DNA from: a virus
Virus record (IMG/VR): IMGVR_UViG_3300027708_000033
Location: 63,238 to 127,237 of that record
Length of the DNA: 64,000 nucleotides
Direction: 5' to 3' (one strand)
Shown here: positions 3,001-23,702 of the stretch, piece by piece
Position numbering within the stretch: position 1 is the stretch's first letter
Layout: the number at the start of each line of letters is the position of its first letter
Translations under genes and position numbers: made by a program
The notes under the pieces: generated by a model
Told to the model about the DNA's origin: nothing
The model's database searches: none
What the model saw: the letters and a program-made list of their open reading frames with translations, nothing else

Positions 3001-4600
3001 TCGGAGTGACATCTAGTGTGTTACCAGGTGTCTTGGCATTAGGAGTTATACTCTTTAGAGGAGCAATCTCACCTTTCTGCGGTGAGTTAGATTCTGGATA
3101 CGGTGCAACTGAGCCCTGGCGCTGTTCACTGACCCATGAAGGCCAGTCAGCGATGATTCCTGAGATGTCTTTAGGTGTAAGAGCAGGAAGTGTTCCAGGT
3201 ATAGTTGCTTCACCCTTGTTGCTAGGAGTCCTAGGCTGGCCTAAAATACCAGTGGTGTCTAGCGGTTGCTGTTGCTGTTGCTGAGGGGTAGCCTGGTCTG
3301 TGGTTCCAGTAACATCTGCACGCTTAGTTGTGTTGATTGGCACTATCGAGCTTGTGCCATCTGCATGCTTTACTGTCGCCATGCCATTTGCTTTATCAAG
3401 TGATGTGATTACACCAGGCTTACCGCCCTTGATGGTTACACTAGAACCGGCTGCAGCAAACTTTCCACCAGCGTCACGCTGTTGCTTTGATGCATTCTGT
3501 CCACGTTCTTCAGTGGTGTACTTTCCATCACCAGCAGTCTGACCTGCAGGCGCTACAGTCACAGCGGCAACCATTGTGTAGTCTACCATTGCTAGGTCAA
3601 TTTCACCTGCAGCATTCTCAGCTAGAGCAGCTTCATGAGCATCTAGGTCATGTACTGAAACACACTTGTGAGGGTTCTGCTGTAGCATTGCTGAAATAAT
3701 GACTGCCGAACCTGGGTCAATTGTGAAGTAATCCTTATCGACCAAATCGTAAGGGTCATCAAGTGCTTTATCATAGGTGTAAATGTCGCCGCTCAGGTGG
3801 CCTAGGTCGTCCCAGGTTCCATCGTCCCAGATGTAAACTTGCCCGTCTGTATCTACTTTGTAGAGACGGTCCATACCTGAACCGTCCATGCGAACACGAA
3901 CTAGGAACTCAGGAGCGTCTACATCGTTGTAGCCGTTTTCAGCATCTATAGCCAGCTTGAAGTCGTCTATTTCAGCGTCATAGAGTTCTTCTGTTTCATA
4001 CATTCTAGGTTGCGCATAGTAGTCATTTAGTGCATAGCCGTCGGCAGTTAGCGCCTTCTTGTTCTCACGCTCAACGATACTCTTAGACCAGCGCCAGCCG
4101 GCGTCTCCGCCCCATAGAGCCCATGCGATACGTCCGTTAGAAGGAAAGTTAGGTTCTCCAGGCTGGTAGCCTTTACCCTTTTTATCTACTTCATGACGAG
4201 GAAAGTACTTTGCAATGTGGCGAATCTTTTCAATACCAATTTGCCCACCTTTAGCGAGGGTGCGAGCTGTGCTCAAACCAACAGGCGTGCCTCCACGGTG
4301 GTGCTCCTTGTGCCACTCTAAAGACTTCTTTGCCTCATCTTGGACAGATGAAGGAATCGTATAGAGCCTGCCAGATGCAGTGATTACCTTTATGTTCAGT
4401 GTTGATAATGCTCCATTAGCCAGTTCTATAACGGCTTCACTGACTGTGCAAGTTTTCTTGTCGCTCCACTTGCGTTTCTTTTTCATAGCAGTAGTTAGCC
4501 CGCTGTCTACGATTACGTTTAGGTCGGTGTCTACAATGACAGAGTTCTCACCGTGTTGAATCAGAGTGAGAGCGCCATCGTAACCGATGATTTCTGGCAT
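1..4600 (-). CDS. Capsid maturation protease/scaffold multidomain fusion, >1533 aa, runs off window start
   Basis: ATG at 4600; same frame at every spot checked down to base 2; absent from ORF track, consistent with no in-window stop. Manual translation gives GRIAWALWGGDAG, two LRRYW..G.G.AKIRW...GDW.RCVR.LSKYLG.RAKGYC.LRH units, PEGVESGDGRSF...RELPLPLMWQ...GHQGS, TIVPKPAFQE and SGDWRPIRGSLELVAVCQVNVPGFP, typical of actinophage prohead proteases. Confidence 0.75.
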   Translation of the reverse strand, partial: MPEIIGYDGALTLIQHGENSVIVDTDLNVIVDSGLTTAMKKKRKWSDKKTCTVSEAVIELANGALSTLNIKVITASGRLYTIPSSVQDEAKKSLEWHKEHHRGGTPVGLSTARTLAKGGQIGIEKIRHIAKYFPRHEVDKKGKGYQPGEPNFPSNGRIAWALWGGDAGWRWSKSIVERENKKALTADGYALNDYYAQPRMYETEELYDAEIDDFKLAIDAENGYNDVDAPEFLVRVRMDGSGMDRLYKVDTDGQVYIWDDGTWDDLGHLSGDIYTYDKALDDPYDLVDKDYFTIDPGSAVIISAMLQQNPHKCVSVHDLDAHEAALAENAAGEIDLAMVDYTMVAAVTVAPAGQTAGDGKYTTEERGQNASKQQRDAGGKFAAAGSSVTIKGGKPGVITSLDKANGMATVKHADGTSSIVPINTTKRADVTGTTDQATPQQQQQQPLDTTGILGQPRTPSNKGEATIPGTLPALTPKDISGIIADWPSWVSEQRQGSVAPYPESNSPQKGEIAPLKSITPNAKTPGNTLDVTPMENSPFAKKLQNLTGSKLVLDAYKHPMLTKWLNKTVTQGGKTTSPNALWYQPVTGAGEPTAVTKDANVLITPETSDVPPLFLACVSPDDPRAVMDVVAVVPVSTKNPEPMTFTREDKKWVRNPKIMDDLRSATPPPVVPLDNESLVSVLQQTDSVTASAYTPDLVLMVLFGPNPSAILAAAARSEDELDALYAGARPPSAHNIDKNRGNAEKLRRYWVRGKGAAKIRWGQGGDWKRCVRYLSKYLGVRAKGYCQLRHKEATGMYTSTHAKLVRGKHNQVTEFIMEEVLTKNYGTPTVVTDKDMLMTIDDIHAETDKAYDHAWTPEPEIEELLQDEGCKSAMTAAGGADRNRGRAEDLRRYWTVGKGGAKIRWNTPGDWTRCVRHLSKYLGTRAKGYCALRHHEMTGMWTGSQQHHRMEASVRSFDEVMEISQLNAQAHRSMERLGMIASAGMNGSKFSIPLVIPEGVESGDGRSFTKDSITTRELPLPLMWQIKTADGHQGSVVVGRIDHMERTEQGIGNAYGVFDSGAYGREAERLVRNGFLRGVSADMDMFEATEKKSKSLEESSEEPRDEQIVANPIVVSKARIMGVTIVPKPAFQECKIVIADDEEQNNNQEDSMIPDGIYVDDVDALDAEALVACGYTASAIPMNPPKSWFENPKLNKPTPLTVDDDGRVYGHIAAWHVDHIGMAFGTRPPRSKSNYAYFHTGVCRTEEGVDVPVGQLTLSGGHASIEASAAEAVKHYDDTASSFADVSAGEDAHGIWVSGALRPGTTPEQIRAIRASAPSGDWRPIRGSLELVAVCQVNVPGFPIARARVASGQVMALVAAGAATLAKMKSDPIAELAARIKTLEQFGGKADLAAKAAELATRVNSQAYFEVINHETRMKLADKGHAMPDGSYPIRNVADLKNAIHAYGRAPVGKEKAVKDLIIKRANELKKPELIPDNWKSPTAKDSLRASASDLKARVAAAQESLGKAFAAEPVDEGRTKYTFETQPRDSKG

Positions 4601-4601
4601 G

Positions 4602-5321
4602 CTAGTCCTTTTTGTTGATGACACGGGCATACTTAAAGCCTGTGGCAGCGGATGCGGTAGTAGCAACTGGCTCATCTGCTTCATAGTTAGCCAAGTCGTC
4701 TGCTGTTAGTCCTTTGCTTTCTTTCTTATCAAAGAAGTCAACAAACTCTGGAGATACATACTCAATGTACATGTCGTCTAGCACGTCGCCGTTAGGGTCA
4801 TCTAGAACTATCCATTTTCCATCCTTACGGATGTAAGTGACATCGGCTCCAGAATACACTAGATAGGTGACTTTGCCGTCGTTGTCATACAAAGCGTACA
4901 GCTCTTCCGGGCCGTAATCTTTAGCTGATTCAGGAGCTACATCAGCAGTAATTTCATTCATAAAAATCTCCTCTAGCGCTTCAGCCGGCACGGCGGTACC
5001 AGTCATCGAAGCCCAAACTCCGTCTGAATCTTGGAACTTGCGTATTGTATAAATTGTACCTTGAGACTTAAATGTTATCTTTGAAGCAGATGCGTTTACC
5101 TTGAAGTCTTTAGCAGATTTTAGCGAGTATTCATTAGCACCTTCTACTCCACCAAGTCTAACACTGACTTCGTCTGGTGATTCATAAAGGACCACTGCGT
5201 AGAGTGAGTGGTGGCCAAGTTCACCCTCACTATCTTTACCTTCTAGAACTAACGGGCCGTAAGCGTACTGTGTTTCAGTATCACTTAACTTCTTTTCAGT
5301 CATGTCCACTATTTGTGCCAT
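4602..5321 (-). CDS. Hypothetical protein of head cluster
   Basis: 239-aa ORF, SD AGAAAAGGA, abuts neighbours. Confidence 0.7.
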   Translation of the reverse strand: MAQIVDMTEKKLSDTETQYAYGPLVLEGKDSEGELGHHSLYAVVLYESPDEVSVRLGGVEGANEYSLKSAKDFKVNASASKITFKSQGTIYTIRKFQDSDGVWASMTGTAVPAEALEEIFMNEITADVAPESAKDYGPEELYALYDNDGKVTYLVYSGADVTYIRKDGKWIVLDDPNGDVLDDMYIEYVSPEFVDFFDKKESKGLTADDLANYEADEPVATTASAATGFKYARVINKKD

Positions 5322-5335
5322 CTCAGTTCCTTTTC

Positions 5336-8300
5336 TTACTTCGTTGTGTTCTTAGCAGCTTTGTAGTCAGGGCCTGTCATAACTACTGCTTCTAGAGGAC
5401 GACCACCAAGCTGGGTAATTCCCTTTTGGCGCAACTTTGTGATTACACGTGTACGCATGTCCTCGTCTTTAACCATTAGCACTGCAGCGTCATCGAAGCT
5501 TAGACGTCCTTTGAACATCACCTCGTAGCCGCCTGGGACAGCTTGGTCAATCGGGCTCTTACCTACACGCTTTCCAAACTGGTCTCCCTTGTTGGCCCAG
5601 AAGTCTAGTCGCTGGAAGGTTCGCTCTGCATCAAACCAGAGTCCAGGTAGGAGACTACTGTTCTCAGAGTCTGTGTTAGACTTTGGAGTAGTGAAGACGT
5701 AGTCAGCGCCGCCAGTTTCAATGTCTCGACTGCTAGACTGCCCAGACGTTGGGATACCTTCACTCCAACGTACCGTGGTAGAAAGCAATCCACCTTGAGG
5801 AGTAGACACACGGTTAACGAAGTATTGCGCAACGCGGTCGCGTGCCTCTTCATCGGTTTCTCCTTGCTTAGCAGCTTGCATAGAGTAGCTGCTTCTTAAG
5901 GTGTGACGCAAAACTTTAATACCTGTCTTATTAGCAATCTTTTTTGCACTCTCTGGGTCAAGACGCATCTCAATACGGCCACCTGCACCAGTAGTAATAG
6001 TTACGTTTTCAGGAGTAATTCCCCATGCGTCCTTGATTCTCTGAAGGCTTGCTGCGCGCTCAGAACCAGATGGGTTACTCTTCGGGTCAACCTTTTCATC
6101 TAGAATACTCATTAGGCGGTTTTCAATCAGAATCTTGGCGTCTTCCTTAGTGCTTGGACGCACATCCTGAACACCTCCTGTATTTAGCGCTAGTGCTAGA
6201 CTTTCTGGAGTCGAGTCTTTCTTAGGCGCAATAATCATTACCTTGTTGTGGTAAGCTCTAGGACCGTTTGAGCTGATTTTTGCTGAACCAGATGTGTGCT
6301 TAGTAGGAACGTCTGCACGAAGGAAGTGAATCTTAGTCCCGTCATCTAGAGTGATGATAAACGTTTGTCCATAGCCACTCTTGTATTTAGCACTACTTCC
6401 ATTAAGAGACGGGACAAACGAGACTTTATCCCCGTCGACTAGGTTCTCAGGAACACTTAAGCCTGTAGTAGCTGAAACTCTAGGGTCGTTGTTCTGTATC
6501 ATTTCTAGTAGTTTGTTTGCGAGCTCGTCGCCTGCCCAGCTAGTCAGCTTGTACTTCATAAGATAGGCATCTTTACCGTCTGTGCCTGTAGCCGCCATGA
6601 TTCGAAGGTCCAAGTCTTCAACAGCATCAGCGTCTAGAGCAATAGAACCTCCAGCAAGACCAGAACCAGGTGTAGATACCTTAGTCAGCAACTCTTGTAG
6701 AGAAGGTGCACCTTCAAAGCCTGACTTGTCCCAACCTAGCTGGTCAATTTGCTGTGGCTTTGCACCGGCTCCGTTTTTTGGAACCGATAACTTACCAGAT
6801 GGGGCCTTATTAGAGGTACCAGACTTAGTCGTGGCTCCAAAAGTAGGAAGGTTGTACTTGTCTGCATCAAGGTTCTTGAAGTATTTCTGTGCTACTTGGA
6901 TGTTGTATATGTTCTTTTTATACTTAGTGTCCAACGCTGTTAGAGTGTTGGCTTTACGCTTCTTCATGCCGTCTGGATACGCAACTTTGATGTAGCCATC
7001 ACTGCTATAGTTTTCTACGACAACACCAACATCGCCATTCTTGTCGACTACAAGATTCCTGAACCCAATCTTCTTGCCATTCTTGTCTTCTAGTGCAGGA
7101 CCTGTCACTGGAAGCATCGGCTCTGAGTTCTTCTCAAAGTCTAGGTCTGCGACACCAGCGTAGGCGGCAGCGATTCCAGGAGTGAGATACTTTCCAGTTG
7201 CTGTTACTGTGTCAGGTGCAACTGAATCTTGTGAACCATCTTCCCAAATCATACGCATCTTGTTCGGGTCGCCGTATCCAGGATTGCGGTAGACACCGAC
7301 TCTGCCGTTCTCGTCCTTGACAATGGCGCCAGGCTTGATTAGAGTTCCCGCTGAGTCGGTCTTGATAGAGTCTTTGTCCGGGTTAGTTGGGTCAGTGATA
7401 GGCTGAATTTCAGGTGCATCTGTGACATCTGGCAGAGTCATGAAATCAAAGGTAAACTTCTTAGGACCTGACGGTTTAGCAGGCTCAGCTTTTACCTCAG
7501 GAGTACTTGGCTCAAAGTTGTTTGTTTCTAGTGCAGTTAGAGCCTCACTCTCTGCTTCATCACGGTCCTCTATGTCCATGTGTATCTGACTGAAGTCTGG
7601 ACCGTTGAGGTCATAGACTACGTCCCATGTACCATTATTGTTTTTGACAACAATAACTTTTGATAGACTTCCGTCAGACTTACTGAACATAGTCATGTTT
7701 TCAGATTTCTGCGGAATGAAAGTCTCTGCACTAGGAGCGTTAGGAGCGTTAGGAGCAGGAGTAGGTGACACAGGTTCTCCGCCAGAGCCGTTAGACTTAA
7801 TCTGGTTGATAGACATAATCTTGATGACTCCACCGCTGTCAGGCTTAACCTTGACGTAGTTCGGGTCTTTCTGGAACCCAACTATTGTTCCAGTAATACC
7901 GTTCTTGCTGTGGACAACTTTGCTGCCCATCTTTCCAGCTGTGCCGTCAGACAACTGAACTGCCTGGCCACCTTCATTTACAATTTTTGTGGCACTAACA
8001 AGTTTTGTCATAGCATCGTTTAGGTCTGAAGTACTTTCAATTTTCCAGCCTGCCTTGAAGTTTTGGACTTGGTACTCTTTACCGTCATCACTCACAGTCA
8101 TCATAGCGACTGTTTCATCTTGCTCGTTCTTGACCATGATGAATCCAGTGTTACCAGCACCCTTTTCAGGTGAAGCCGTATAGCCGTCTGGTAGCTGTGA
8201 CTGGATAGACTGAGCCGTATCAGTTCTAACTTTCTCATCAGCTAGGTTTAGAAGCGTAGATTCTGGTGCAGCGACTGGAGTAGTTGGAGTTTCAACTTTA

Positions 8301-11300
8301 GCGGTTGTGCCTCCCTTAGGGCTAATTGAGTCTGCTTGGCTCTCAAGCTCCTTGGCTCCTTCAATGAGGTCTTGTATAGAGGAATCCTTTGTGCTCCACT
8401 CGGCTCCGTCTTCTCCTTCTGTTGAAGTTACTGCATCAACAAGTTCGTTGTACATTGCAGCAAGCTGGCGCAACTTCTTTGCACTCTCGTTAGTGTCTAA
8501 GTCTTTGCCTGACTTAATGTCATCTGCTATTTCACCTAGGTGAGACATAATCGACTCGCCAATTCCCTTTGAGTCCCAGCTGTGTTGAGCTACTCCAGGG
8601 TCGTATTTTTCGTACGCGTTGTCAACTATTTTCTTGAGTGCGTCTCCTGTTATTGTGCTACTCGCTGACCCCTCCGAAGGCGCCTCTTCAGGCACATCGA
8701 CTTCAGACGGCTTAAAGTTCTGGAGGGTGTAGTTCTTGCTAACTCCGTCTTCTTCACCAGTAAGGTTGATGTTGCCATTCTTAGGGTTAGTCCATACATA
8801 AGTAGGCGCGACAACACGCTCTTTGTCGTTGTACTTGAATGAAACTAGGTCACCGTTTTTGGCTGCATCTTCTAGCTGTGTCTTTAGACTATCGTTGTCG
8901 CCATTTACATCTAGCTTCTTAGTCTTGCCAGATGAACCGGCTTCAGGGTTCTTTTTCTTAGCCGGCTTGTCGCTTAGACCGAACTTGTCAAGGATGTACT
9001 GACGACGTGCTTTTAGCTTAGTCTTGAGTTCTTCCTGTTTAGCTGGGTCAGTGATAATTGAGTCTACTAGTTCATCTATCTGAGAAGTCGACAGGTTCTG
9101 AAGAACCTTTGCGCTTTCTAACTTCTGTTCATCACTCATCTGGCTGAAGACTTTTGCAGATGGACGTGTGCTAGTCTTGTCTGTAAACGCATCTAGCTCT
9201 GGTACTTCTTCACCAAACGCGCCACCCTTTGGAGAACCTTGAGCACGGAACAAAAGCGCGCCACCTGGGTCTACACGGACAGGTTCACCATTCTTATCTG
9301 TTACTACGTTGTCGTAGTCTAGACCAATTACATCCCAGTTAGCAAGCAATGCGTCAATTGCAAAGCCTTGCTGTAAACGAGCCATGTACTCTTTGTTATT
9401 GAGGTTCTTCTTTAGGTCTTGCTTTGCGCCATCAATCATCGGCGAGTAGGTCACATCTATGCCGTCGGCATCCTTGCCAGCTAACACCTTTGCAGATGAG
9501 ATTCCAGCTGCGTCATAAATCGCTGAGGCTAAACGTTCGTTTTCACCGTGAAGCTGCGACTTAGGAGCCTTGACGTAAACCTGTTCACCTGTTGCTGGAT
9601 TCTCAAAGGTTCCGCCTGGGTTTGAACCTTTTTGACCGCCGACCTTTTTCCATTTAGACAGGTCTAGGCTGCCAGCTTGCTCTTCCTTGATTGTGTCAAC
9701 GGTAACAACGTTGTTCTTGTTTCCACCTTCTGCTGGAGTAAAACTATCTACAGAATCAGCAAGTTTCTTAATGTATTCGGTAAGAGCAACTGGTGCGCCT
9801 TCTTTGTAAAGTGCGTCGTGCAGTGAGTACAAATCTCCTGCAACAGCAATGCTGTTTGCACCATCTGATTCATCTAGGCTATCTAGAAGATTCTGGATTA
9901 CATTCTCGTTGCCGCTAACACCCTTTAGCATTGGCTCGTAGCCAATGTCTTGCTTGTCAAGAATCATTGCAATACTCATGTCGGCACCAGTTACTAATGA
10001 ACGACTACCTCCGGTTTCTGCTAGCAATTTATCACTGTTATCACTGCTGAATGGGTTCTTTACCGTGTCTGTTGCTTGCTCAACTGGAGCTGGCTCTACA
10101 GGTGCGATTTCAGGTACTACCGACTTCTCATCAGCAATAACCTCGGCTTCTGTTTCAGGAGTAACATCTTTCTGATTCCTGTTGAAAATTACTGTCTCAC
10201 CATTAGGGAAACTAACTGCACTATATTTTCCAGACTGCGCTGCCCACTGTGCGATTAGGTGCTCAACAGGCTCAGCCATGCTGTTGCCGCTTGCCTTTTC
10301 TTCTTCACGCTTTTTCTGGATGTAGTCAAACGCACCGCTAGCCCTTGTAGCAGCTAGACCAGCCTTAGTTTCAAGTTCTTTCTTATCGTTCTTGTAGACG
10401 ATGTTGAGCTGCCTTGAATACTCGAAAGCAGGAATCTCAACTTTTAGTTTTGCAATTTCCTTTGCGTCAGGGTGTGTTGCCCAATACTCGCTAGCCATGT
10501 ACTCGCTCATGCCGTAGCCGTACTCAGCTACAAACATTGCACCTGGAATTCCCCACTGGCTGCCGCCTAGTGTGTCCTTACCTTCTGGGTTGAATCCATT
10601 TTCGATAATAGATTTTGCGTTTTCTGGAGTTGTCCAGTGGACTAGTTCTCCTGACTTGATGTCAGACCCATCCGTGATGATAGCAGCATAGTTCTTGTCA
10701 GGAGTTCCTGGCTTTCTAGCCTTCATGTCTGCTAGTAACTGTTCAGCTGCAGCCTTACCGTCACTGATTTTATGGCCCTCGCCAAAGAACTTTTGTGCAA
10801 TTACTTTGCCATTCTCATCTAGTAGCCTGGCAATTACTTCGTCTACCTTACCACCAACACCTCCGTTGTTTGAGCCTTGCTTATGGTGCCAAGTCTTAAG
10901 AGTGTAACCAGTTTCTGGGTCAGTAGCAATGACATCACCGTACCCGTCTATTTTCCAATCTGCAGCTGGAGCAGCTGGAGCCTCAGCAGGAACAACAATG
11001 TTAGCAGGTTCTGCCATCGTGTTCTCAAGCTCAGGATGATTCTCATAGAACTTTTTAATGAGTGCATCTTGAACTCTTTGAAGCTGCGCATTGCGCTGAG
11101 GCTTTACAGCTTTAGAAGTACGAGTTGCTGAGATTTCATCTATTACACGCTGAAGGTCTTCCTCATTACTAATCTTGCTAATGAGCTCACTTAGTGTGTC
11201 TCCATTGAATGCTTTTCCAAGCTCTTCATCGATTGCAGCAATAGTGCCATCAGGTAGTCTTTCACTTACAGCAGAAAGGAACTCAATGTCAGGCTGTGCT

Positions 11301-14300
11301 TCAGTTGAAGCCTCGTTCTTGTCGAGTGCAGCGATACTACTCTTTAGCTCGCCGAATTTCTTCCATCGTGCCTTATCCAGTGCTGTTGGGAAGTCGACTG
11401 CCCAGCTGGTGTTGTACTCACCTTCACGGCTGTTCCAGTGTCCAGGTGATTTAGTGCGAAGCCAATCAAAAATCTCTTTTGACGGTGCGCCGGAGTTGAT
11501 GAGCTTTGACAGGTCACCGTTCTCATTGTCGTATCCCTTTAGCGCATTTGTTACGAACTGAGGCTCGAAACCTTCAGGTGCAGCCGGAAGCCCGTACGCT
11601 GCATTAATAATCGCCCATTCTTCTGGTCTTTGCGATTCATCTGCTGAAATGTACTTATAGCCAGTCGCAAACCCTGTAGGCGACATCGTCTTGTACTCAT
11701 TCTTGATTTGCTGCTTGTTTAACGCAGCAATGATGTCATCACCGTTGCGTAGAGTTCCATCTAGGATTCCGCTACGTACCGTGTTTTCAGGGTCATTGCT
11801 GTCTGAGATTAGTGAAACAAGATTGTCTAGTGCAGACTGGTGCTCTTCTTTTGAAAGTGGAGTTATGCTTGCTTGACCTTGCTTTAGAGCGTCTAGCTTA
11901 TCACTCAGTGCTTTTGCTGTTTCTTCGCTCTTAGCTTTAGCATCTGCAGAAGACTGAGCCTCGCCCTCTGTTTTGTGGGCGTTTAGAGCTGAATTAAGAG
12001 ATGTGCCTTCTTGACTGTAATCAGAGTACGATGAAGACGTGCCTTCCCAGTTTTTATTACCTTTGAGTAGGTCACGGATTTCCTGACTAGTAATCTCTCC
12101 ACCATTTGCAGTCTTCTCGTCAATGCTACGACGAATAGAACCATCTAAGTCAAACGGTGCAAGTTTCTCCTTGATTTTTGCTAGCTCAGGGTTAGTGTGC
12201 TGGTTTAGTGGGTCGCTACCGTCGGTTAGAGCAACTTTGGCCTTTGGCAAAACTTTTAGTTCATTGAACAAAGTATTGACACCGAACTTGTCAATTGAAG
12301 CAAGACGGTCCATGTAGCCTTGACGCTCTTCGCTAGTCATGACACGCTCACGTAGCATAGAGCGAATCATTTCTGTTTGCTTTTTGCTAGGTCTGTTTAT
12401 AGGGGCTACAGTCGACTTTGTCGCAGGCAGCGGCTGTGAACCATTTGCCTTTCCTTCACCGAACTTCTCAGCTGCGTCTAAGATATCTTTTTTAAGCTGG
12501 CTAGACTGCTCAGGGTTTAGGTAACTAAGCATCTTACCGATGTTGCTCTTTAGTTCACCTTCGCTGCTAAACAGGTCAAGAACATCTTGCTTAGTAGCTC
12601 CTCCAAAATCTATAGCGTCTCTTAGCTGGAACTCTAGGTCGTACGGAGCGACCAGCATCTTAACTCTCTCTAGGAACGGGTCGCTATTTTTATTTAGCGG
12701 GTCTGTGCCTGGAGTAATTTGACTGCCCTTGCGAAATGGAAGCTTATACAACATGTTAATGATGTTGCTAGCCTCGCCAACAGTAGTACCGTTGTCTAGA
12801 CTGCGAAGAATCTCTTCTCTCTGTTCCGGAGGTAGGTCTTTTTTGTCGACCGTGGTTCTAATCGTGTGTAACTGTAGTTTTGATGCTCGCTCGCGGTTTA
12901 TACCTGTCCATTTAGTAACACGGAGCGGGTCTTCATTAGGGTCACTGTAGGTCTTGCCGGTCACTTCTTTGCCGACTATAAACTGGATTTTAGCTAGCGC
13001 AGAAGAGTTCTTCTCAGCGTTAAGCTGCTGGTCTTCTCCAGGTTTAGTGTATTTCCCTAGAGCTTCTATACCGGCATCGATGTCATCCATGGTAATCTCA
13101 CCGACAATACCGTTAGCACTGTGTAGTTCTTCTTCTCTCCAAAATGGAAATGCTCTTGAGGCTCTTGCTAGTTCATTCTGCACGTCAGGATTACTCTGGT
13201 CCATGCTCTTTAGTTGTGTAATTCTCTGCTGCAGAGCTTCTCTAACTCTGGTTATTGCTTTGCTAGGAGCGTTCTGTAGCGGACCTGTTGACAACAACTC
13301 GTCGGTGCCGGTCTCTTTTTTGCTGGCTACAAACTTCTTTTCCTTAGGATTCCAGAATGTTCTCTTTTCTAGATTTCTTTGGGTAGGCCATCTAAACGGT
13401 TCAGCCGCTGCAGGTTTCGCAGTCTCAGATGCTGCAGCGTTAGAAGTAGAAACAACTTTTAGAGTGTTAGGCTCGTCTAGCACAGTTGTTTTTTTATCTT
13501 CAAACGTGATTCGGTCACCGGTGTCCATTGAAAACTTTTTAGCGACAGTACGACGTGAACCATCTGGGAAGACAACGACATCGCCAACCTTGATTTCAGG
13601 GCCAGTCTTGTCAACAAGAGTCTCTTCTTGTGGAGTTGCCTTAGAGTCGGCTGCGTGAAGCTGCTGTAGAACACCAGCGGCTTCACCACGAGTCTTAGCG
13701 GAGGCTAAAGCATCCTTGGCTTTTGCAGCAATCTCAGGATTAGCAGAGTTAGAGAACTCTTCTAGAGCCTTTTTCTGGTTGTCTGTAGTCGGGTTATTAG
13801 GCGAGACAACATTCTTGAACTCAGCCATGCGTTCTTCATAACGCTTTTTCATTGCAGGGAAGTCTAGAAGACTGAGGTCTTTATTGTCTTCTTTTGCAGC
13901 GCGGTCAATGATTCTAGAAACCAAGTTGTAAGCATCTTCTGCATCACCGTCAGCTGAGTGCCAGTTAGCCGGTTCAAAGCCAAGGAAGTTAGCAACAGGA
14001 CCTAGGCTAGTCGTGGCTTTGATTTCACCAGTCTTACGGTCAGGTGCCTTAGGACCGTCGGTTCCTGTTTCTGGGTCGTACTTAGGTAGAAGTGAAGCAA
14101 GGTCTTTAGAGTCGATGGTTCCAGCAATGTCCAGCTTTACGCCGGCATCGTCAGCCATACGCTTTAGAATCTCAACGTCGAAAGGAACGTTCTGACCGCC
14201 GAGAAGTGCGTTAGGGCCAATGAACGCCATAAACTCTTTAATAGCGTCGTCTTTACTCTTCTGCTGAGCTAGCCACTCTGGAGTTACTAGTGTGGTCTTT

Positions 14301-16135
14301 GGCTTTCCGTTTTCGTCTAGAACTCTGTTGCCGTTCTCGTCTAGAATGTCGCGACCTAGATTTTTTGCTGACCAGTCAGAGAGCTTACTCTCAGGGTTCG
14401 TGTAGACGTTGAAACGTCCAATAATCTTGCCGTCTTTTACCTTGACAGCACCAAGTTGGACAGAGTCGTTGGTAATGTCCTGACCATCGTAGTCAGCGAT
14501 ACCAGTGGTCTCAAAGTCAAAGTAAGTAACAGTCTGGCCTTGTAGACGGTCTTGAACATCTTTCCAGCTCTGAGCACCTTGCATAATGTTCTGGAATTCA
14601 CCAGTGAAAGCACCAGGAGTCGGAAGACGAGTTCCGCTTGCATCCATAGTCGCAGACTGGAAGTCGATACCCAGGTTGTCTAGTGAGCCTGGAACGCTTG
14701 GTGCAGTAGAAGTTGATTCTGCTGCCGGCTTTACTTCTGCCTTTGGAAGTTGCTTCTGACGGACGTCGTAGATTCTTGCAGTCTTGTTGACCTCAAAGTA
14801 TCTTTCCTTGCCAGTCTTTAGATTGCGAATCTTGATTCCGTACTTACCTGGGGCTTTGCCCTTGTAGATACCTAGAATCTCTTCTGTCGGAGGAAGTTCG
14901 TAACTAGGGTCTGCTTGGCGCTTCTTCAGCATGTTCTCCTCGGCGCCCTTAATCGGGTAGTAGTCTGGGAGCAAGTCGCCTGTGTAGAGCTGGTCTACTC
15001 TAAGGTCCTTCTTTAGATAAGTTGCTGCTTCAGCCTCTGCTGGCTGCTCAGTTCCACTGCCGAACTCGTCGTCAGCTACCTTCTTGATGTGGGCCTGGAT
15101 TGCTGGCCACTCAGCTGCATCTAGACCTTCAACTACATTACCGTTTTGGTCTTTTAGCTCGTACTTCAAGTCTCCTTTAGGAGTGGCGATAAAGCCATCT
15201 TCAGTTGCAAAGTCACCATTTGGAAGTTTCTTCCAGTCGCTTGGAGCTTCTAGCTTATTTGCTAGAAGGTCTTTGATGTCCTGTGCACGCTTGACTGTGC
15301 TGGCCTTACCAGCTGGAAGTTCGATTCCAGCTTTTTTCAGCTGGTCAGTTGTAAGAACTACACCTAGAGACTCAAAGTTGTCTAGGTTTACAGGAAGAAT
15401 GTCTCCCTTCTTTAGACCTAGCGATGCGTCGTCTTCGGTGATGTAAAGTTCACCGGTGTTTGTGGTCGACGACCCGCCTACTAGAACACCTAGCTGGCTC
15501 TTTACCTTACTTCCGAAGCGAACTAAGAATGAACCCATGTGGCCTTCAAAGGCGAAGCGCTTTAGACGGTCACGAAGCTGGCGCTTTGCACGAGCACTAC
15601 GTGCAGCTGAAGAGTTTCCATCTGCGATAAGTGCAACAAGGTCAAGCGGAATGTCTCTGCCTGCAGCTTCTAGACGCGCTAGAGCATGCATACGCTCGAG
15701 TGAACCGAACTCCATTGTCTGTATTGACGCGACTAACGGGCGAAGCTCTTCGGCAATCCTTGGGTCAGCAGACAGCCATTCGGCACGAGCTTCTGCAATA
15801 GCAGATGCAGTTAGTCCTGAGCGCGCTGCTGAAAGCGGGTGCGAGATTGGAAGCAGGTCAAAGTGTTCTGCTTTTTCATTAGTACGAAGACCTAGAGTTG
15901 CTAGTGTGATAAAACGGTCAACTGCACGCTCGACTGCGAAAGCACGAGCGCTAGCATCGGTGTGAGGTGTGCGAGCAAGAACTCTGTCCGCTACAGTCAA
16001 CGCTGCAGTAAGTGGAACACGGCGAGCAGGAAGCACACGCGCATTAGCAATAAGCACAAGCTCTGCTATGTGAACTCTAATGCTAGGAGTGTCATCAATC
16101 TCTGGCACGTTTGGGTTTTCGTATTCGCTACTCAC
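5336..16135 (-). CDS. Giant polyvalent, probably virion-associated protein (DEDDh exonuclease, two ADP-ribosyltransferase-like domains, PI3K/HipA-like kinase, WYL-like, SH3/KOW repeats)
   Basis: 3599-aa ORF; YFDFETTG/GQNVPFD/HSADGDA; LVHWTTPENAKSIIENGF; GSNPGG..YVK..E.LAS..DALLANWD..DN..RVDPGGALLFRAQG; VSFKYNDKERVVAP; RHTL..GGLLS..DYVF..EVMFK. Confidence 0.85.
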   Translation of the reverse strand: MSSEYENPNVPEIDDTPSIRVHIAELVLIANARVLPARRVPLTAALTVADRVLARTPHTDASARAFAVERAVDRFITLATLGLRTNEKAEHFDLLPISHPLSAARSGLTASAIAEARAEWLSADPRIAEELRPLVASIQTMEFGSLERMHALARLEAAGRDIPLDLVALIADGNSSAARSARAKRQLRDRLKRFAFEGHMGSFLVRFGSKVKSQLGVLVGGSSTTNTGELYITEDDASLGLKKGDILPVNLDNFESLGVVLTTDQLKKAGIELPAGKASTVKRAQDIKDLLANKLEAPSDWKKLPNGDFATEDGFIATPKGDLKYELKDQNGNVVEGLDAAEWPAIQAHIKKVADDEFGSGTEQPAEAEAATYLKKDLRVDQLYTGDLLPDYYPIKGAEENMLKKRQADPSYELPPTEEILGIYKGKAPGKYGIKIRNLKTGKERYFEVNKTARIYDVRQKQLPKAEVKPAAESTSTAPSVPGSLDNLGIDFQSATMDASGTRLPTPGAFTGEFQNIMQGAQSWKDVQDRLQGQTVTYFDFETTGIADYDGQDITNDSVQLGAVKVKDGKIIGRFNVYTNPESKLSDWSAKNLGRDILDENGNRVLDENGKPKTTLVTPEWLAQQKSKDDAIKEFMAFIGPNALLGGQNVPFDVEILKRMADDAGVKLDIAGTIDSKDLASLLPKYDPETGTDGPKAPDRKTGEIKATTSLGPVANFLGFEPANWHSADGDAEDAYNLVSRIIDRAAKEDNKDLSLLDFPAMKKRYEERMAEFKNVVSPNNPTTDNQKKALEEFSNSANPEIAAKAKDALASAKTRGEAAGVLQQLHAADSKATPQEETLVDKTGPEIKVGDVVVFPDGSRRTVAKKFSMDTGDRITFEDKKTTVLDEPNTLKVVSTSNAAASETAKPAAAEPFRWPTQRNLEKRTFWNPKEKKFVASKKETGTDELLSTGPLQNAPSKAITRVREALQQRITQLKSMDQSNPDVQNELARASRAFPFWREEELHSANGIVGEITMDDIDAGIEALGKYTKPGEDQQLNAEKNSSALAKIQFIVGKEVTGKTYSDPNEDPLRVTKWTGINRERASKLQLHTIRTTVDKKDLPPEQREEILRSLDNGTTVGEASNIINMLYKLPFRKGSQITPGTDPLNKNSDPFLERVKMLVAPYDLEFQLRDAIDFGGATKQDVLDLFSSEGELKSNIGKMLSYLNPEQSSQLKKDILDAAEKFGEGKANGSQPLPATKSTVAPINRPSKKQTEMIRSMLRERVMTSEERQGYMDRLASIDKFGVNTLFNELKVLPKAKVALTDGSDPLNQHTNPELAKIKEKLAPFDLDGSIRRSIDEKTANGGEITSQEIRDLLKGNKNWEGTSSSYSDYSQEGTSLNSALNAHKTEGEAQSSADAKAKSEETAKALSDKLDALKQGQASITPLSKEEHQSALDNLVSLISDSNDPENTVRSGILDGTLRNGDDIIAALNKQQIKNEYKTMSPTGFATGYKYISADESQRPEEWAIINAAYGLPAAPEGFEPQFVTNALKGYDNENGDLSKLINSGAPSKEIFDWLRTKSPGHWNSREGEYNTSWAVDFPTALDKARWKKFGELKSSIAALDKNEASTEAQPDIEFLSAVSERLPDGTIAAIDEELGKAFNGDTLSELISKISNEEDLQRVIDEISATRTSKAVKPQRNAQLQRVQDALIKKFYENHPELENTMAEPANIVVPAEAPAAPAADWKIDGYGDVIATDPETGYTLKTWHHKQGSNNGGVGGKVDEVIARLLDENGKVIAQKFFGEGHKISDGKAAAEQLLADMKARKPGTPDKNYAAIITDGSDIKSGELVHWTTPENAKSIIENGFNPEGKDTLGGSQWGIPGAMFVAEYGYGMSEYMASEYWATHPDAKEIAKLKVEIPAFEYSRQLNIVYKNDKKELETKAGLAATRASGAFDYIQKKREEEKASGNSMAEPVEHLIAQWAAQSGKYSAVSFPNGETVIFNRNQKDVTPETEAEVIADEKSVVPEIAPVEPAPVEQATDTVKNPFSSDNSDKLLAETGGSRSLVTGADMSIAMILDKQDIGYEPMLKGVSGNENVIQNLLDSLDESDGANSIAVAGDLYSLHDALYKEGAPVALTEYIKKLADSVDSFTPAEGGNKNNVVTVDTIKEEQAGSLDLSKWKKVGGQKGSNPGGTFENPATGEQVYVKAPKSQLHGENERLASAIYDAAGISSAKVLAGKDADGIDVTYSPMIDGAKQDLKKNLNNKEYMARLQQGFAIDALLANWDVIGLDYDNVVTDKNGEPVRVDPGGALLFRAQGSPKGGAFGEEVPELDAFTDKTSTRPSAKVFSQMSDEQKLESAKVLQNLSTSQIDELVDSIITDPAKQEELKTKLKARRQYILDKFGLSDKPAKKKNPEAGSSGKTKKLDVNGDNDSLKTQLEDAAKNGDLVSFKYNDKERVVAPTYVWTNPKNGNINLTGEEDGVSKNYTLQNFKPSEVDVPEEAPSEGSASSTITGDALKKIVDNAYEKYDPGVAQHSWDSKGIGESIMSHLGEIADDIKSGKDLDTNESAKKLRQLAAMYNELVDAVTSTEGEDGAEWSTKDSSIQDLIEGAKELESQADSISPKGGTTAKVETPTTPVAAPESTLLNLADEKVRTDTAQSIQSQLPDGYTASPEKGAGNTGFIMVKNEQDETVAMMTVSDDGKEYQVQNFKAGWKIESTSDLNDAMTKLVSATKIVNEGGQAVQLSDGTAGKMGSKVVHSKNGITGTIVGFQKDPNYVKVKPDSGGVIKIMSINQIKSNGSGGEPVSPTPAPNAPNAPSAETFIPQKSENMTMFSKSDGSLSKVIVVKNNNGTWDVVYDLNGPDFSQIHMDIEDRDEAESEALTALETNNFEPSTPEVKAEPAKPSGPKKFTFDFMTLPDVTDAPEIQPITDPTNPDKDSIKTDSAGTLIKPGAIVKDENGRVGVYRNPGYGDPNKMRMIWEDGSQDSVAPDTVTATGKYLTPGIAAAYAGVADLDFEKNSEPMLPVTGPALEDKNGKKIGFRNLVVDKNGDVGVVVENYSSDGYIKVAYPDGMKKRKANTLTALDTKYKKNIYNIQVAQKYFKNLDADKYNLPTFGATTKSGTSNKAPSGKLSVPKNGAGAKPQQIDQLGWDKSGFEGAPSLQELLTKVSTPGSGLAGGSIALDADAVEDLDLRIMAATGTDGKDAYLMKYKLTSWAGDELANKLLEMIQNNDPRVSATTGLSVPENLVDGDKVSFVPSLNGSSAKYKSGYGQTFIITLDDGTKIHFLRADVPTKHTSGSAKISSNGPRAYHNKVMIIAPKKDSTPESLALALNTGGVQDVRPSTKEDAKILIENRLMSILDEKVDPKSNPSGSERAASLQRIKDAWGITPENVTITTGAGGRIEMRLDPESAKKIANKTGIKVLRHTLRSSYSMQAAKQGETDEEARDRVAQYFVNRVSTPQGGLLSTTVRWSEGIPTSGQSSSRDIETGGADYVFTTPKSNTDSENSSLLPGLWFDAERTFQRLDFWANKGDQFGKRVGKSPIDQAVPGGYEVMFKGRLSFDDAAVLMVKDEDMRTRVITKLRQKGITQLGGRPLEAVVMTGPDYKAAKNTTK

Positions 16136-17553: not shown

Positions 17554-17575
17554 GGTGAACCTCTTGAGATAGGGC

Positions 17576-18133
17576 TTAGTTTAGGTACTGCTCGTCTTCT
17601 GCTACCATCATGTCTTCTACTGGAGGCGTCATGCCTTCCATGTCATTGTCTGCTGCAATAGGCTGCTTGTTCTGGTTTAGAGTAGCGCGAAGCTTCCAAC
17701 CAAGTTTGCCATGGTCACCTTGCAAGTCAGCCATGATGTTTGCAATTCCCTGCTCACGGCAGTCTGTTGCAATGTCAAAGATGCTCTTGACGTGTTCGAT
17801 GTACATGTTGTTTACTTCTAGAAGAGCTTCACACATGCTAATTGGGTCGTCACCTGCGTTGACGCTTGTGATACCACTCAGCGAAGCAAAGTCGCTAAGC
17901 AAGAAAGGTGCATCGTAGTCTAGCTGACGAATAAGCTCAGCAATGGTGTCAATATTCTCCTCGGCTTCTTCATAGATGTCACCAAAGAAGCTGTGAAACT
18001 CGGTGAAGTCGTGACCCTTGACATTCCAGTGGAAGCCGTGAGCTAGAAACTTGAATGCGACTGTTTCGCCTAGAAGACCAGTTAGCTCGCTAGCGAGTAG
18101 TTCTTTATGGTCAATGCCATCGTTTTCATACAT
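17576..18133 (-). CDS. dps: Dps / ferritin-like DNA protection protein
   Basis: AHGFHWNVKG..F..FH..F..IYEE....D.IAE.IR signature; GWKLRA end. Confidence 0.9.
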   Translation of the reverse strand: MYENDGIDHKELLASELTGLLGETVAFKFLAHGFHWNVKGHDFTEFHSFFGDIYEEAEENIDTIAELIRQLDYDAPFLLSDFASLSGITSVNAGDDPISMCEALLEVNNMYIEHVKSIFDIATDCREQGIANIMADLQGDHGKLGWKLRATLNQNKQPIAADNDMEGMTPPVEDMMVAEDEQYLN

Positions 18134-18145
18134 GTTGTTTTTTCC

Positions 18146-19834
18146 TTATTCCTGGGTAGGGGTTTCTGAAGTTGGTGCTGGTGTTTCTGGTGCTGGTGCT
18201 TCTGCAGCAACAGGTTGCCCAGCTAGAACATCTGCCACACTCTGTGGCATCGGTGCTGGATTAGCGGCCTGACTTGCAGCGCGAGCTGCGTTCATAACTT
18301 CTGGAGCCAACGCGGCAAGCATTGACTCTGTCAGGTCAGGTGAGATAGCTGCCTTCTCAAAGAGAAGACGGAGTGCAATTTCCTTGGCGTCTGGTGCATC
18401 TGCATCTGCGAAGCCGTGAGCACGGCGCCAAGTTTCAAAGCTGATTGCCATCTTGTCAAAGCCTGAGTCGGCGTCAGCTGCACGGTCGTTGCGAGTTGCA
18501 ACCTGTGATGGGTCAAACCAAACAACAATACGGTCGACAGCTGCCTCGTCGAAGCCGTTAGCCTTTAGATACGGACGCAAGTATACAACTGTGATAGCGT
18601 CTGCAACAAGTAGCATTAGAGGTTCGATGTGTGCCTTGTAAAGTGCCTCATCGATTTGCAAAGCGTTTGAGTACTTGACGTTTGCAAGACCGGTGACGAC
18701 ATCCTTTGGAACGTCTAGACCCTGCAAGATTCTCTCTAGCACACGGTCTGCACGCTGAACAAGCGCGCCATCGAAACTACGCTCAAACTTGAACTGCTTG
18801 ATTTTGTCACCAAGGTCAGCAGGTCCACGAATAATAAGTGGAACGACAGCGCTAGCTGATTCCTCATCACGAATAGGTGTGGTCATTGCGTCAACGAGCT
18901 GGTCTTCAAACTCGTCTTGCATTTCCTCTGGAGTCGGCTCAGTGTATTCACCATCGACATCATACGGGAATGCCGGGTCAGGACCTGCAGCAACCGAGAG
19001 ACCGTCTGGCAAGTATAGAGCGCCAGCGTTTAGACGTGAACGTGCAGTTGCACGGAACGTACGGTTTAGAAGTAGAAGTTCAGCACAAAGGTCTAGAAGA
19101 CCACGTAGACTTGAATCGGCTTCTTCAGAGTAGCGAGGGTGAGCACGCCAGATGCGACCAACAAAAGAACCGTTTGGAAGCAAGATGTTACCTGATTTAG
19201 TAGATGGCTGTGAGCCTCCAGCCATGCCGGTTTGGTCACGTCTAGGCTGGATGAAGTAGTTTCCTTTTTGGTCAATCAAAAGCTCGTCAACCGAGCGAAT
19301 GTCCCAGCTCTCAGGAATCTGGTGACCGATACGTGGAGGAATCTGAACCAGGTAGCATTCACCTGTCACAGAAAGGTTTAGTGCAGCGTCACGTAGAAGA
19401 CCGGCTTGGCCTCCGTAAGCTGAATCAAGACGAGTTAGCGCACGTTCAGCAGCAGCGCTCAGTCTAGGGTCCACAGATGGAACGTCACGAATCGGTGACG
19501 GTGCTTGAGCAGGATTATCAACGACTGCAGCATAGAGACGGATTCTAGAGACAACGTTTGAAACAAGGTTGAAAGCGTACTTGATTTCGCCGATAGCGTC
19601 GTAGTACTCCCAGGCTTCTGACTGCCAGCCGTTTATACCTGCAGTACGACGCATTCTGAAGCGCTCGGCTTCACCTTTGTCGGCAACATTTAGTTGGACA
19701 GCCGCAGCTGTGATACCGCGAGGTGTGTTGAAAGGAGCAACTGGAACTGAAGAGTAACTGCTTGATAAGCTGCCAACGATAGGGCGCTGAGGTTGAGACT
19801 GAGGCTGATTATCATCGCGCCTAAATACAGCCAT
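18146..19834 (-). CDS. Portal protein (actinophage type)
   Basis: RGITAAA..WQSEAWEYYDAIGEIKY..SRIRLYAA; ARSRLNAGALYLP; PIRDEESASAVVP; position upstream of head genes. Confidence 0.85.
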   Translation of the reverse strand: MAVFRRDDNQPQSQPQRPIVGSLSSSYSSVPVAPFNTPRGITAAAVQLNVADKGEAERFRMRRTAGINGWQSEAWEYYDAIGEIKYAFNLVSNVVSRIRLYAAVVDNPAQAPSPIRDVPSVDPRLSAAAERALTRLDSAYGGQAGLLRDAALNLSVTGECYLVQIPPRIGHQIPESWDIRSVDELLIDQKGNYFIQPRRDQTGMAGGSQPSTKSGNILLPNGSFVGRIWRAHPRYSEEADSSLRGLLDLCAELLLLNRTFRATARSRLNAGALYLPDGLSVAAGPDPAFPYDVDGEYTEPTPEEMQDEFEDQLVDAMTTPIRDEESASAVVPLIIRGPADLGDKIKQFKFERSFDGALVQRADRVLERILQGLDVPKDVVTGLANVKYSNALQIDEALYKAHIEPLMLLVADAITVVYLRPYLKANGFDEAAVDRIVVWFDPSQVATRNDRAADADSGFDKMAISFETWRRAHGFADADAPDAKEIALRLLFEKAAISPDLTESMLAALAPEVMNAARAASQAANPAPMPQSVADVLAGQPVAAEAPAPETPAPTSETPTQE

Positions 19835-23665: not shown

Positions 23666-23702
23666 AAAGAAAGCCTCCTCGAAAGGGGAGGTTTTCTTTT
23701 TT
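23666..23702. terminator. Bidirectional terminator between the + island and terL
   Basis: AAAGAAAGCCTCCTC-GAAA-GGGGAGGTTTTCTTTT. Confidence 0.8.

Follow-up and report, generated by a model that had tools for sequence, protein, structure and literature searches.

A phage opens its contest with host defence through effectors packaged in the head, of which few, to our knowledge, have been studied (T4 Alt, P1 Dar, N4 vRNAP). The locus described here raises the question of whether one giant protein can bring together several such effectors, and whether it does so as part of the virion. The locus lies in a stretch of 64,000 nucleotides (hereafter "the window"), positions 63,238 to 127,237 and hence the final 64 kb of the 127,237-bp IMG/VR virus record IMGVR_UViG_3300027708_000033, for which the completeness estimate is 76%. 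On its minus strand, between the genes for the portal and the prohead protease, the window holds a gene for a protein of 3599 amino acids (aa). A preliminary description, made from the sequence alone, saw in this protein an exonuclease, a kinase, a WYL-like module, several SH3/KOW-like repeats and two ADP-ribosyltransferase (ART)-like domains, and proposed that it is packaged and injected to counter host defence. The analysis presented here largely confirms what was observed, except for the internal ART-like domain; the interpretation is plausible, and is better supported by relatives of the protein that are fused to the head protein domain MuF. The reading favoured here, with a probability of roughly 0.6, is that an uncultured siphophage of freshwater actinobacteria carries the giant protein in its virion as a polyvalent cargo with several enzymes.

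A constant frame with exchangeable cargo

The giant gene makes up ~8% of the 127-kb genome and is, as had been described, a single open frame. Residue n of the protein corresponds to window position 16135-3(n-1), and the domain positions computed here agree with the coordinates given in the preliminary description. The gene and the parts of its product are as follows.

5336..16135, minus strand: giant gene, single open frame, 3599 aa, GTG start
15116..16135, minus strand (aa 1-340): N-terminal family-specific domain of ~320 aa, a helical part and then a small beta domain
13811..14533, minus strand (aa 535-775): DEDDh 3'-5' exonuclease, variable cargo (Pfam RNase_T, PHROG 192, NCBIfam)
13481..13633, minus strand (aa 835-885): KOW/SH3-like small barrel, the weakest copy (family-barrel hidden Markov model [HMM], i-E 3e-3)
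10166..10708, minus strand (aa ~1810-1990): rare domain with an H1833 ... F1864 ... E1980 pattern, variable cargo, candidate ART-PolyVal-like ADP-ribosyltransferase
8984..9706, minus strand (aa 2144-2384): atypical protein-kinase-like domain, constant family core
8714..8926, minus strand (aa 2404-2474): WYL-type small barrel with its preceding helix, recognized via homologues (model pLDDT 71-84)
7793..7951, minus strand (aa 2729-2781): KOW/SH3-like barrel (HMM i-E 3.5e-4)
7187..7477, minus strand (aa 2887-2983): KOW/SH3-like barrel (HMM i-E 4e-7)
6917..7135, minus strand (aa 3001-3073): KOW/SH3-like barrel that opens the conserved C-terminal module
6179..6700, minus strand (aa ~3146-3319): alpha/beta middle domain of the C-terminal module, confidently modelled
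5351..5953, minus strand (aa 3395-3595): putative DarT-like ADP-ribosyltransferase-fold domain, with invariant H3411, TGGADY3479, R3509, D3511 and E3538

The protein belongs to a family with a constant frame, which consists of the N-terminal domain, a kinase of the CtkA/PI4K/HipA type, in most cases with a WYL barrel after it, KOW-like spacer barrels and a C-terminal module whose last domain is DarT-like. Exchangeable cargo cassettes lie between the N-terminal domain and the kinase; in the window's protein these are the exonuclease and the rare H..F..E domain. The family was collected by searching with the C-terminal 460 aa among proteins of 1979-6299 aa (E<=0.001, 2067 scored candidates). Fifty-two giant proteins match this region, the window's own included, which leaves 51 relatives with lengths of 2026 to 4357 aa. 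All are metagenomic, and they bear no functional name apart from one evidently automatic label. When these relatives were mapped onto the giant protein by BLAST (coverage >=0.6), its parts were recovered in the following numbers.

Kinase region: 51/51 giant relatives
C-terminal middle domain: 51/51
C-terminal ART-like domain: 51/51
N-terminal domain: 42/51
KOW-like barrel, aa 3005-3070: 38/51
WYL module at this place: 20/51
Internal ART-like domain: 3/51
Exonuclease: 1/51

Precomputed Pfam domains are present in 9 of the 52 rows, comprising RNase_T in two, ADPrib_exo_Tox in four (one of which also has ART), and GNAT, ATLF and NUDIX in one each; a Pfam scan made here confirmed these domains in six of the 9. 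The presence of several effector-type enzyme domains in one chain, with cargo swapped among relatives (GNAT, VIP2/C3-type ART, NUDIX, ATLF-like), bears out the description of the protein as polyvalent. One relative, P0003, has flanks that are 91-96% identical to the giant protein, carries a 199-aa insert (aa 485-683) directly before the exonuclease, and lacks aa 921-1239. This insert has homologues in the ADPrib_exo_Tox regions of three other members, P0051, P0052 and P0050 (E 1e-10 to 2e-4); the difference between P0003 and the giant protein looks like a swap of a VIP2/C3-type ART-like cassette between near-identical phages. Since the kinase and the DarT-like ART fold stay constant while other enzymes are swapped even between near-identical phages, the gene is marked out as an arms-race locus in freshwater actinobacterial phages, which are very abundant.

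When IMG/VR was scanned with the alignment of the family, 373 pattern matches were obtained, of which 46 were confirmed as loci; the alignment was needed, single-protein scans of viral contigs having found one close relative or none. Across 185,579 prokaryote species, one genome each, a single locus was found, in a Myxococcota metagenome-assembled genome (MAG), which is weak evidence for absence of the family from prophages because a single peptide pattern was used. The frame on this MAG contig (L053, 4700-10495) encodes 1931 aa, with an annexin repeat first (Pfam Annexin, E 6.9e-16) and the C-terminal module last, and may derive from a prophage or from a viral contig binned into the MAG. On a viral contig of IMG/VR (L030), kinases lie at 1881-2555 and 14650-15366, and C-terminal modules at 9675-11030 and 16348-17571. 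An open frame exceeding 3900 aa contains the first kinase and the first module, and the other two, downstream of this frame, suggest a second, shorter family member in tandem.

Evidence for packaging into the head

Evidence for packaging came from shorter proteins that end in the same C-terminal module. Beyond the giants, this module closes IMG/VR proteins of ~760-785 aa and of ~1500-1930 aa. Twelve of the 15 shorter proteins scanned start with Pfam Phage_Mu_F, at 44.9-60.9 bits where the cut-off is 29.6; L045, L049 and the Myxococcota protein with the annexin repeat are the exceptions. According to the available text of two papers (PMC5512222, PMC9503650), MuF belongs to the structure of the head and frequently occurs in fusions with effectors that are believed to be injected, and head-packaged ARTs, MuF-effector fusions and polyvalent proteins have all been described. 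Neighbouring genes were annotated at two of these loci, L043 and L034. At both, the gene for the MuF-module protein starts where the portal gene (PHROG 113) stops, the N-terminal ~290 aa of its product match "head morphogenesis" and "minor head protein" PHROGs, and protease-like and major head genes follow. The proteins of L032 and L048 hold MuF, the kinase and the C-terminal module in one chain. Because the short, intermediate and giant forms share the C-terminal module, they form an apparent series that runs from MuF-module through MuF-kinase-module proteins to giants in which MuF would have been replaced by another N-terminal domain and cargo added.

The position of the giant gene provides a second line of evidence. 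Read along the minus strand, the gene for the large terminase (TerL) comes first, followed by those for the portal and a Dps-like protein, the 472-aa gene, the giant gene, a 239-aa gene and the protease fusion. Two small genes thus separate the portal from the giant gene, which lies in the head module next to the portal. PHROG and Pfam matches of the neighbours agree with the earlier placement between portal and prohead protease.

23701-25116, minus strand: TerL
18146..19834, minus strand: portal gene (PHROG 776, E 9.5e-105), annotated as portal in relatives
17576-18133, minus strand: Dps/ferritin-like gene (Pfam Ferritin, E 9.8e-16; PHROG 3636 "DNA binding protein", E 6.9e-24)
16135-17553, minus strand: 472-aa gene, translationally coupled to the giant gene; its sole match is DUF5824 (E 8.3e-8, aa 306-365)
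2..4684, minus strand, extending beyond the start of the window: prohead protease fusion gene (PHROGs 859 and 18402)

By portal sequence, the nearest named phages are Actinomycetia phage DSL-LC01 (75.5% identity) and large Microbacterium phages (60-64%), with Arthrobacter and Gordonia phages also among them. A giant "hypothetical protein" occupies the equivalent slot in DSL-LC01 (3289 aa) and in Microbacterium phage Pumpernickel (2235 aa). A homologous kinase is found in 20 GenBank phage records. One of its bearers, gp129 of Yersinia phage fHe-Yen8-01 (2146 aa), combines the kinase (35.7% identity, E 8e-25) with ADPrib_exo_Tox; it is recorded as an "ADP-ribosyltransferase toxin" and carries its depositors' annotation "phage particle associated protein". 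The kinase protein of Gordonia phage Forza, gp78 (31.5% identity), follows the portal gp77, and the ART gp80 comes after. Given the fusion of the C-terminal module to MuF, the adjacency to the portal and the annotation of the Yersinia protein, the giant protein is probably packaged into the capsid and ejected with the DNA.

Adjacency to the portal could also reflect co-expression alone. The protein would then be a late cytoplasmic enzyme complex that is never packaged, is active while heads are assembled and filled with DNA, and modifies, for instance, phage DNA (by ADP-ribosylation, against restriction), capsid proteins or host factors late in infection. Its domains require ATP and NAD+, both of which the cytoplasm supplies; the solved examples of DarT-like folds are, by their PDB titles, active on DNA; and neither MuF nor any known signal for capsid targeting is present in the giant protein. 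Moreover, ARTs near packaging genes might counter immunity directed against the packaging apparatus, as suggested in the accessible part of PMC9503650. However, the C-terminal module is joined to a structural head component (MuF, as characterized in the text available of PMC5512222) in 12 of the 15 shorter relatives, the kinase-bearing Yersinia protein is annotated as particle-associated, and rapid turnover of cassettes suits arms-race effectors better than a DNA-modification pathway. We regard the cytoplasmic alternative as unlikely.

Several observations weigh against the packaged reading. The preliminary description linked the protein to MuF proteins, and for the giant protein itself this link fails: Phage_Mu_F (PF04233) is found neither in the protein nor anywhere in the 127-kb record at E<=10. 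The N-terminal domain has no Pfam match in any of 16 aligned members, and a profile of it gave nothing meaningful against PDB sequences; with no MuF and no known match, its service in head incorporation is something we purely infer. In GenBank, one phage record out of 50,697 combines the N-terminal and the C-terminal domains, and this record, DSL-LC01, was itself assembled from a metagenome. The label of the Yersinia protein is a depositor's record note on a distant phage that shares the kinase alone, and no paper on that phage was found. The size of the chain is a further difficulty, since a 390-kDa multidomain protein would need to unfold to exit through the tail. Finally, the internal domain, taken up below, is unproven as a second ART and counts as a lead only.

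The helical part of the N-terminal domain carries the conserved motifs DLLPxGHP, W..ADPR and GNSSAARSxRAxxQxRDR. The domain was considered as a divergent MuF, and this candidate was rejected (hhalign probability 0.2%). BLASTP of the giant protein against nine head-module proteins of the same phage gave nothing below E 0.1, and no N-terminal tag shared with the protease or scaffold protein was seen in this comparison. Pumpernickel gp82 (L002, 19957-26664), which comes from a cultured phage, shares with aa 161-332 only the GNS..ARS.RA..Q.RDR region and the small domain that follows it (E 1e-9), and may belong to a more remote branch of this theme.

The kinase and the WYL-type module

A PI3K/HipA-like kinase had been proposed for the middle of the protein. 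The region of aa 1725-2500 was modelled with AlphaFold2 from a 32-row alignment, with a mean pLDDT of 72.6 that rises to ~90-97 over aa 2144-2384. For this last part, the top Foldseek match is Helicobacter pylori CtkA (E 1.3e-6, probability 1.0), among 142 matches at E<=1e-3. An independent structure aligner returned CotH (14.5), PI4KIIalpha (13.8), MavQ (12.4), HipA (11.8), Fam20 (11.5) and actin-fragmin kinase (10.9), and the modelled bilobal kinase fold agrees with solved members of the CtkA/PI3K-PI4K/HipA type over most of the domain. On the strength of both structure searches, the proposal is correct at the level of the fold. No curated kinase sequence family (e.g., Pfam PI3_PI4_kinase, HipA) matches the giant protein at E<=1; a sub-threshold match to PI3_PI4_kinase was seen only in Pumpernickel gp82, at its C-terminus. 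The glycine-rich loop and K2189, E2200, D2261, N2266, D2268, D2275, N2276 and D2289 are invariant in 52/52 sequences. The invariance of residues of the active-site type argues for an active enzyme, in which K2189 and E2200 would be the ATP-binding Lys and Glu, and D2268, N2276 and D2289 the catalytic or metal-binding Asp and Asn.

The WYL-like module noted directly after the kinase stands by way of its homologues. Of 10 aligned modules homologous to it (35-91% identity), 5 match Pfam WYL (PF13280; best E 8.8e-7), although the window's own copy has no match to this model, nor does any other part of the virus record. A profile of the module against PDB sequences found two "WYL domain-containing" proteins over the whole length of the module, weakly (E ~2). 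On this comparative basis, we accept aa 2404-2474 as a WYL-type domain.

The match to CtkA, which is titled a proinflammatory kinase of Helicobacter pylori, recalls a different target for the protein. A "Trojan horse" role, as a toxin against protists that eat infected bacteria, has been proposed for 24 freshwater phages that encode VIP2-like ARTs and, in some cases, have Actinobacteria as their predicted hosts (available text of PMC6802176), and ADPrib_exo_Tox domains do occur in some relatives of the giant protein. The giant protein itself, however, has no ADPrib_exo_Tox domain, and no signal peptide or translocation component was seen in it. The MuF fusions and the adjacency to the portal point instead to delivery into the bacterial host, and a DEDDh exonuclease and a WYL domain suit prokaryotic nucleic-acid conflicts better. 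A toxin against eukaryotic grazers is therefore very improbable here.

The C-terminal module and its probable DarT-like fold

The C-terminal module of ~600 aa was modelled over aa 2990-3599 from an alignment with 28 of the 51 relatives (mean pLDDT 84.9, pTM 0.74). The model has three parts, namely a KOW-like barrel, an alpha/beta middle domain and a last domain with an ART-like fold. For the middle domain, no clear structural match was found. With Foldseek, the C-terminal model had no significant match in PDB or BFVD apart from small barrels. A structure search independent of Foldseek, over 48,161 chains, placed DarT entries at ranks 1, 2, 4 and 5, and DarT proteins are the only structural matches of the last domain (aa 3395-3595). 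The modelled ART fold can be superposed on DarT structures (PDB 7omu, 7omv, 7omw, 7omy, 8baq, 7yk3).

To follow the conservation of the last domain, 35 sequences reaching down to 25% identity were aligned over this domain alone; H3411, TGGADY3479, R3509, D3511 and E3538 are invariant among them. For comparison with DarT itself, an alignment was made of 19 sequences from 29 DarT-positive genomes among 401 searched, with one locus from an unpublished genome excluded. In hhalign, E3538 falls on the invariant Glu of DarT and the match continues through the next strand and helix, but it is weak (probability 14%, E 0.002, 69 columns). The nearest named ESM-Atlas clusters of the domain are NarE, pertussis S1 and scabin-like ARTs at 0.86-0.87, which is under the 0.9 line and serves as a lead. 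Pfam DarT (PF14487) has no candidate in the virus record, none of the 35 aligned members (0/35) matches an ART family at E<=10 or any family in an all-Pfam scan, and a profile of the domain had 0 matches against PDB sequences. Taken together, the model and the structure matches make an ART fold for the last domain quite likely, and the C-terminal member of the two proposed ARTs holds at this level. DarT-like chemistry on DNA is much less certain than the fold.

The invariant residues also bear on whether the protein acts as an enzyme at all. A mainly structural internal head or ejection protein, acting as a core, in DNA spooling, in pressure or as a conduit, might carry enzyme domains that are accessory or inactive. 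About half of the chain (aa 340-520, 790-1725 and 2500-2990) is without enzymatic assignment and contains repeated KOW-like barrels and helices, the relatives vary greatly in size, and a gene for a Dps/ferritin-like DNA-binding protein lies nearby. This alternative is at odds with the pattern of conservation. The kinase and the ART-fold module are the family-constant parts, whereas the non-enzymatic stretches are the least conserved. Because residues of the active-site type are invariant, at eight positions of the kinase in 52/52 sequences and at H, Y and E of the ART-fold domain in 35/35, selection appears to have acted on catalysis, and a chiefly structural role is quite unlikely.

The exonuclease, the small barrels and the internal domain

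Pfam, NCBIfam and PHROG recognized nothing beyond the exonuclease, whether the protein was scanned whole or cut into 23 overlapping pieces of 300 aa. Here the preliminary call was right. Pfam RNase_T (PF00929) scores 35.6 bits against a cut-off of 24 on the whole protein (E 1.8e-8) and 44.1 bits on a 300-aa piece (E 4.1e-11), PHROG 192 matches with E 1.6e-13, and the NCBIfam matches are to exonuclease regions of the PolC/DnaQ type. DEDDh exonucleases are defined by acidic residues of three Exo motifs together with an H-x4-D motif, and these motifs can be read in the protein as FDFETTG (D541, E543), VPFD (D653) and HSADGD (H726, D731). A phmmer search of the whole giant protein against PDB sequences gave only a weak match to the PolC exonuclease, as it did for P0003. 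While one giant relative has an exonuclease at the equivalent place, exonucleases also occur elsewhere in the chain in distant loci (L020-L027 and L030). The several SH3/KOW-like repeats noted earlier were recovered as four barrels with the family-barrel HMM.

The internal domain had been described as a PARP-like ART with an H-W-T..SI..GF signature. An exhaustive phmmer search of 1.84 billion representatives found only 9 proteins at E<=0.001, two of which are repetitive and match solely through numerous weak pieces. The credible homologues retain LVH[WFY]T[TS]...I..GF...G.[FY]...SEYMAS...[AG]E.[IV]IF, and we take the order of H, aromatic residue and E to be that expected for ARTs of the H-Y-E type. 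Only one homologue outside the giants (P0055) has a Pfam match, which is to Phage_Mu_F and precedes the domain. In ESM-Atlas features, ART-PolyVal clusters make up 9 of the 30 nearest (0.91). Pfam ART-PolyVal (PF18760) matched nothing at E<=1 on 300-aa pieces and nothing at E<=10 across the record. The N-terminal half of the domain (aa 1807-1901) was modelled with pLDDT <50, and the structure match lists of the long segment were filled by the kinase. The internal ART is thus not confirmed, with the residue pattern and the Atlas clusters providing the lead.

The gene start and other features of the locus

The GTG start codon of the giant gene overlaps the upstream 472-aa open reading frame by one base, the first base of the GTG being the last base of the upstream stop codon. 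An IMG/VR contig relative that is 76% identical (L003) has the identical 1-base overlap, the same start and the same N-terminal residues. The frame first described at 5336-16135 is therefore one whose GTG start is coupled to the upstream gene. In DSL-LC01, a gene annotated "cytoplasmic protein" occupies the place of the 472-aa gene after the portal. As for the Dps/ferritin-like gene that follows the portal gene in the head module, its product might be packaged and serve to bind DNA or to handle iron.

The full length of the protease fusion is 1716 aa, as seen from a complete open reading frame in L052 (7534-12684). Its PHROG matches (head maturation protease, virion structural protein) lie at aa ~1020-1430, and long N- and C-terminal parts fall outside any assigned family. 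Near the end of the record, the window holds two further minus-strand genes: one of the serine recombinase/DNA invertase type at 63120-63812 (PHROG 125, E 1.3e-40; PHROG 95 "integrase", E 1.5e-39) and one for a DNA methyltransferase at 60075-61235 (PHROG 67, E 1.8e-75). On the opposite strand, a 1105-aa open reading frame at 53065-56382 (plus strand) has no PHROG match at E<=1e-5. DNA of the window is present in sequencing runs labelled freshwater metagenome, three of which may be its source, and two more runs hold 0.24-0.41 of the sampled words; no RNA run is listed among those that hold it.

A model for delivery and action

In the model of a packaged polyvalent protein, the giant protein would be made alongside the head proteins and incorporated in the procapsid from the slot that is usual for MuF/gp7 proteins, with the N-terminal domain as the incorporation part. 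It would be released into the cell together with the DNA. There, the kinase would phosphorylate host targets, the ART domain or domains would ADP-ribosylate host targets that could be protein or nucleic acid, and the exonuclease would remove a nucleic-acid substrate. The combined effect would be that defence is blunted, or the host taken over, early in infection.

A more specific proposal is that the kinase-WYL-DarT-like block is an injected weapon or shield directed at nucleic acid. Phages would have adopted the DNA-ADP-ribosylating chemistry of the bacterial DarT toxin, fused it to head-incorporation domains, whether MuF (in some lineages) or the new N-terminal domain, and would deliver it along with their genome. 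Host DNA or RNA might be ADP-ribosylated to stop replication, or incoming phage DNA might be marked against restriction, and the WYL barrel might sense a nucleic acid or a signalling nucleotide and so gate the kinase and the ART. We hold this proposal to be doubtful. If true, it would mean a family-wide, virion-borne system for ADP-ribosylation of nucleic acid in freshwater actinophages. The series of MuF proteins opens ways to address the capsid-loading part, the offensive use of a DarT-like enzyme by phages, and the role of CtkA-type kinases in bacteria.

Comparison with known systems

Much of the concept is already known from polyvalent proteins and MuF-effector fusions, while the protein family itself appears undescribed, in that we could not find it in print. 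In the available main-text portions of the literature on polyvalent proteins and phage ARTs (freshwater actinophages included), DarT, CtkA, DSL-LC01 and fHe-Yen8-01, no description of the family was found. The preliminary description had taken the combination of domains to be uncharacterised; this stands as far as published descriptions go, but the protein is not a one-off, having at least 51 giant relatives.

The closest concept is that of the polyvalent proteins described by Iyer et al. 2017 (PMC5512222). As set out in the text available, these have multiple (2-15) effector domains per chain, a late or virion gene setting and a variable architecture, they also feature domains of the ART, kinase, GNAT and NUDIX types, and their delivery with the DNA was predicted. 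The giant protein is alike in its several effector domains, its virion and packaging neighbours and an architecture that varies among relatives. It differs in that the N-terminal domain and the C-terminal module that define the giant family have no Pfam match. The kinase clade of the polyvalent proteins is, in the same portion of the paper, found mainly in elements of Verrucomicrobia-Chlamydia and Bacteroidetes, whereas the family here is one of actinophages. Neither DarT nor CtkA is mentioned in that portion, WYL is not among the parts given there for polyvalent proteins, and an exonuclease turns up only among the references.

MuF/SPP1 gp7 proteins occupy the same slot next to the portal, and the MuF-fused proteins of 12 of the 15 shorter relatives end in a part that is homologous to the C-terminal module of the giant protein. 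The MuF domain is theirs, however, and is lacking from the giant protein and its record. The kinase is 12-17% identical to CtkA, CotH, PI4KIIalpha, MavQ, HipA, Fam20 and actin-fragmin kinase. Unlike relatives of the CtkA/HipA type, it is embedded in a giant phage protein and has no Pfam kinase match. DarT, the toxin of DarTG, is a small protein paired with an antitoxin, whereas the DarT-like domain is fused into a giant chain. The latter is not a member of DarT at the level of sequence, and its TGGADY motif and the preceding LLSTTxRW stretch are peculiar to the giant family.

Among named phages, fHe-Yen8-01 (gp129) and Forza (gp78/gp80) combine a homologous kinase with an ART, in one chain and in neighbouring genes, respectively, as the giant protein probably does. 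They share the kinase only; their ART is of the VIP2/C3 type (PF03496), and they are without the N-terminal and C-terminal modules of the giant family. DSL-LC01 is closer. Its 3289-aa protein (WJZ48510.1) shares the N-terminal domain, the kinase, WYL modules, the C-terminal module and the slot after the portal, but has neither the exonuclease nor the internal ART-like domain. The paper on DSL-LC01 (PMC10611076), in its available text, makes no mention of a kinase or of "ribosyl", and mentions "portal" once, within a general list of structural proteins. Within the family, the window's member is thus distinguished by its cargo, which joins a DEDDh exonuclease cassette to the rare H..F..E domain.

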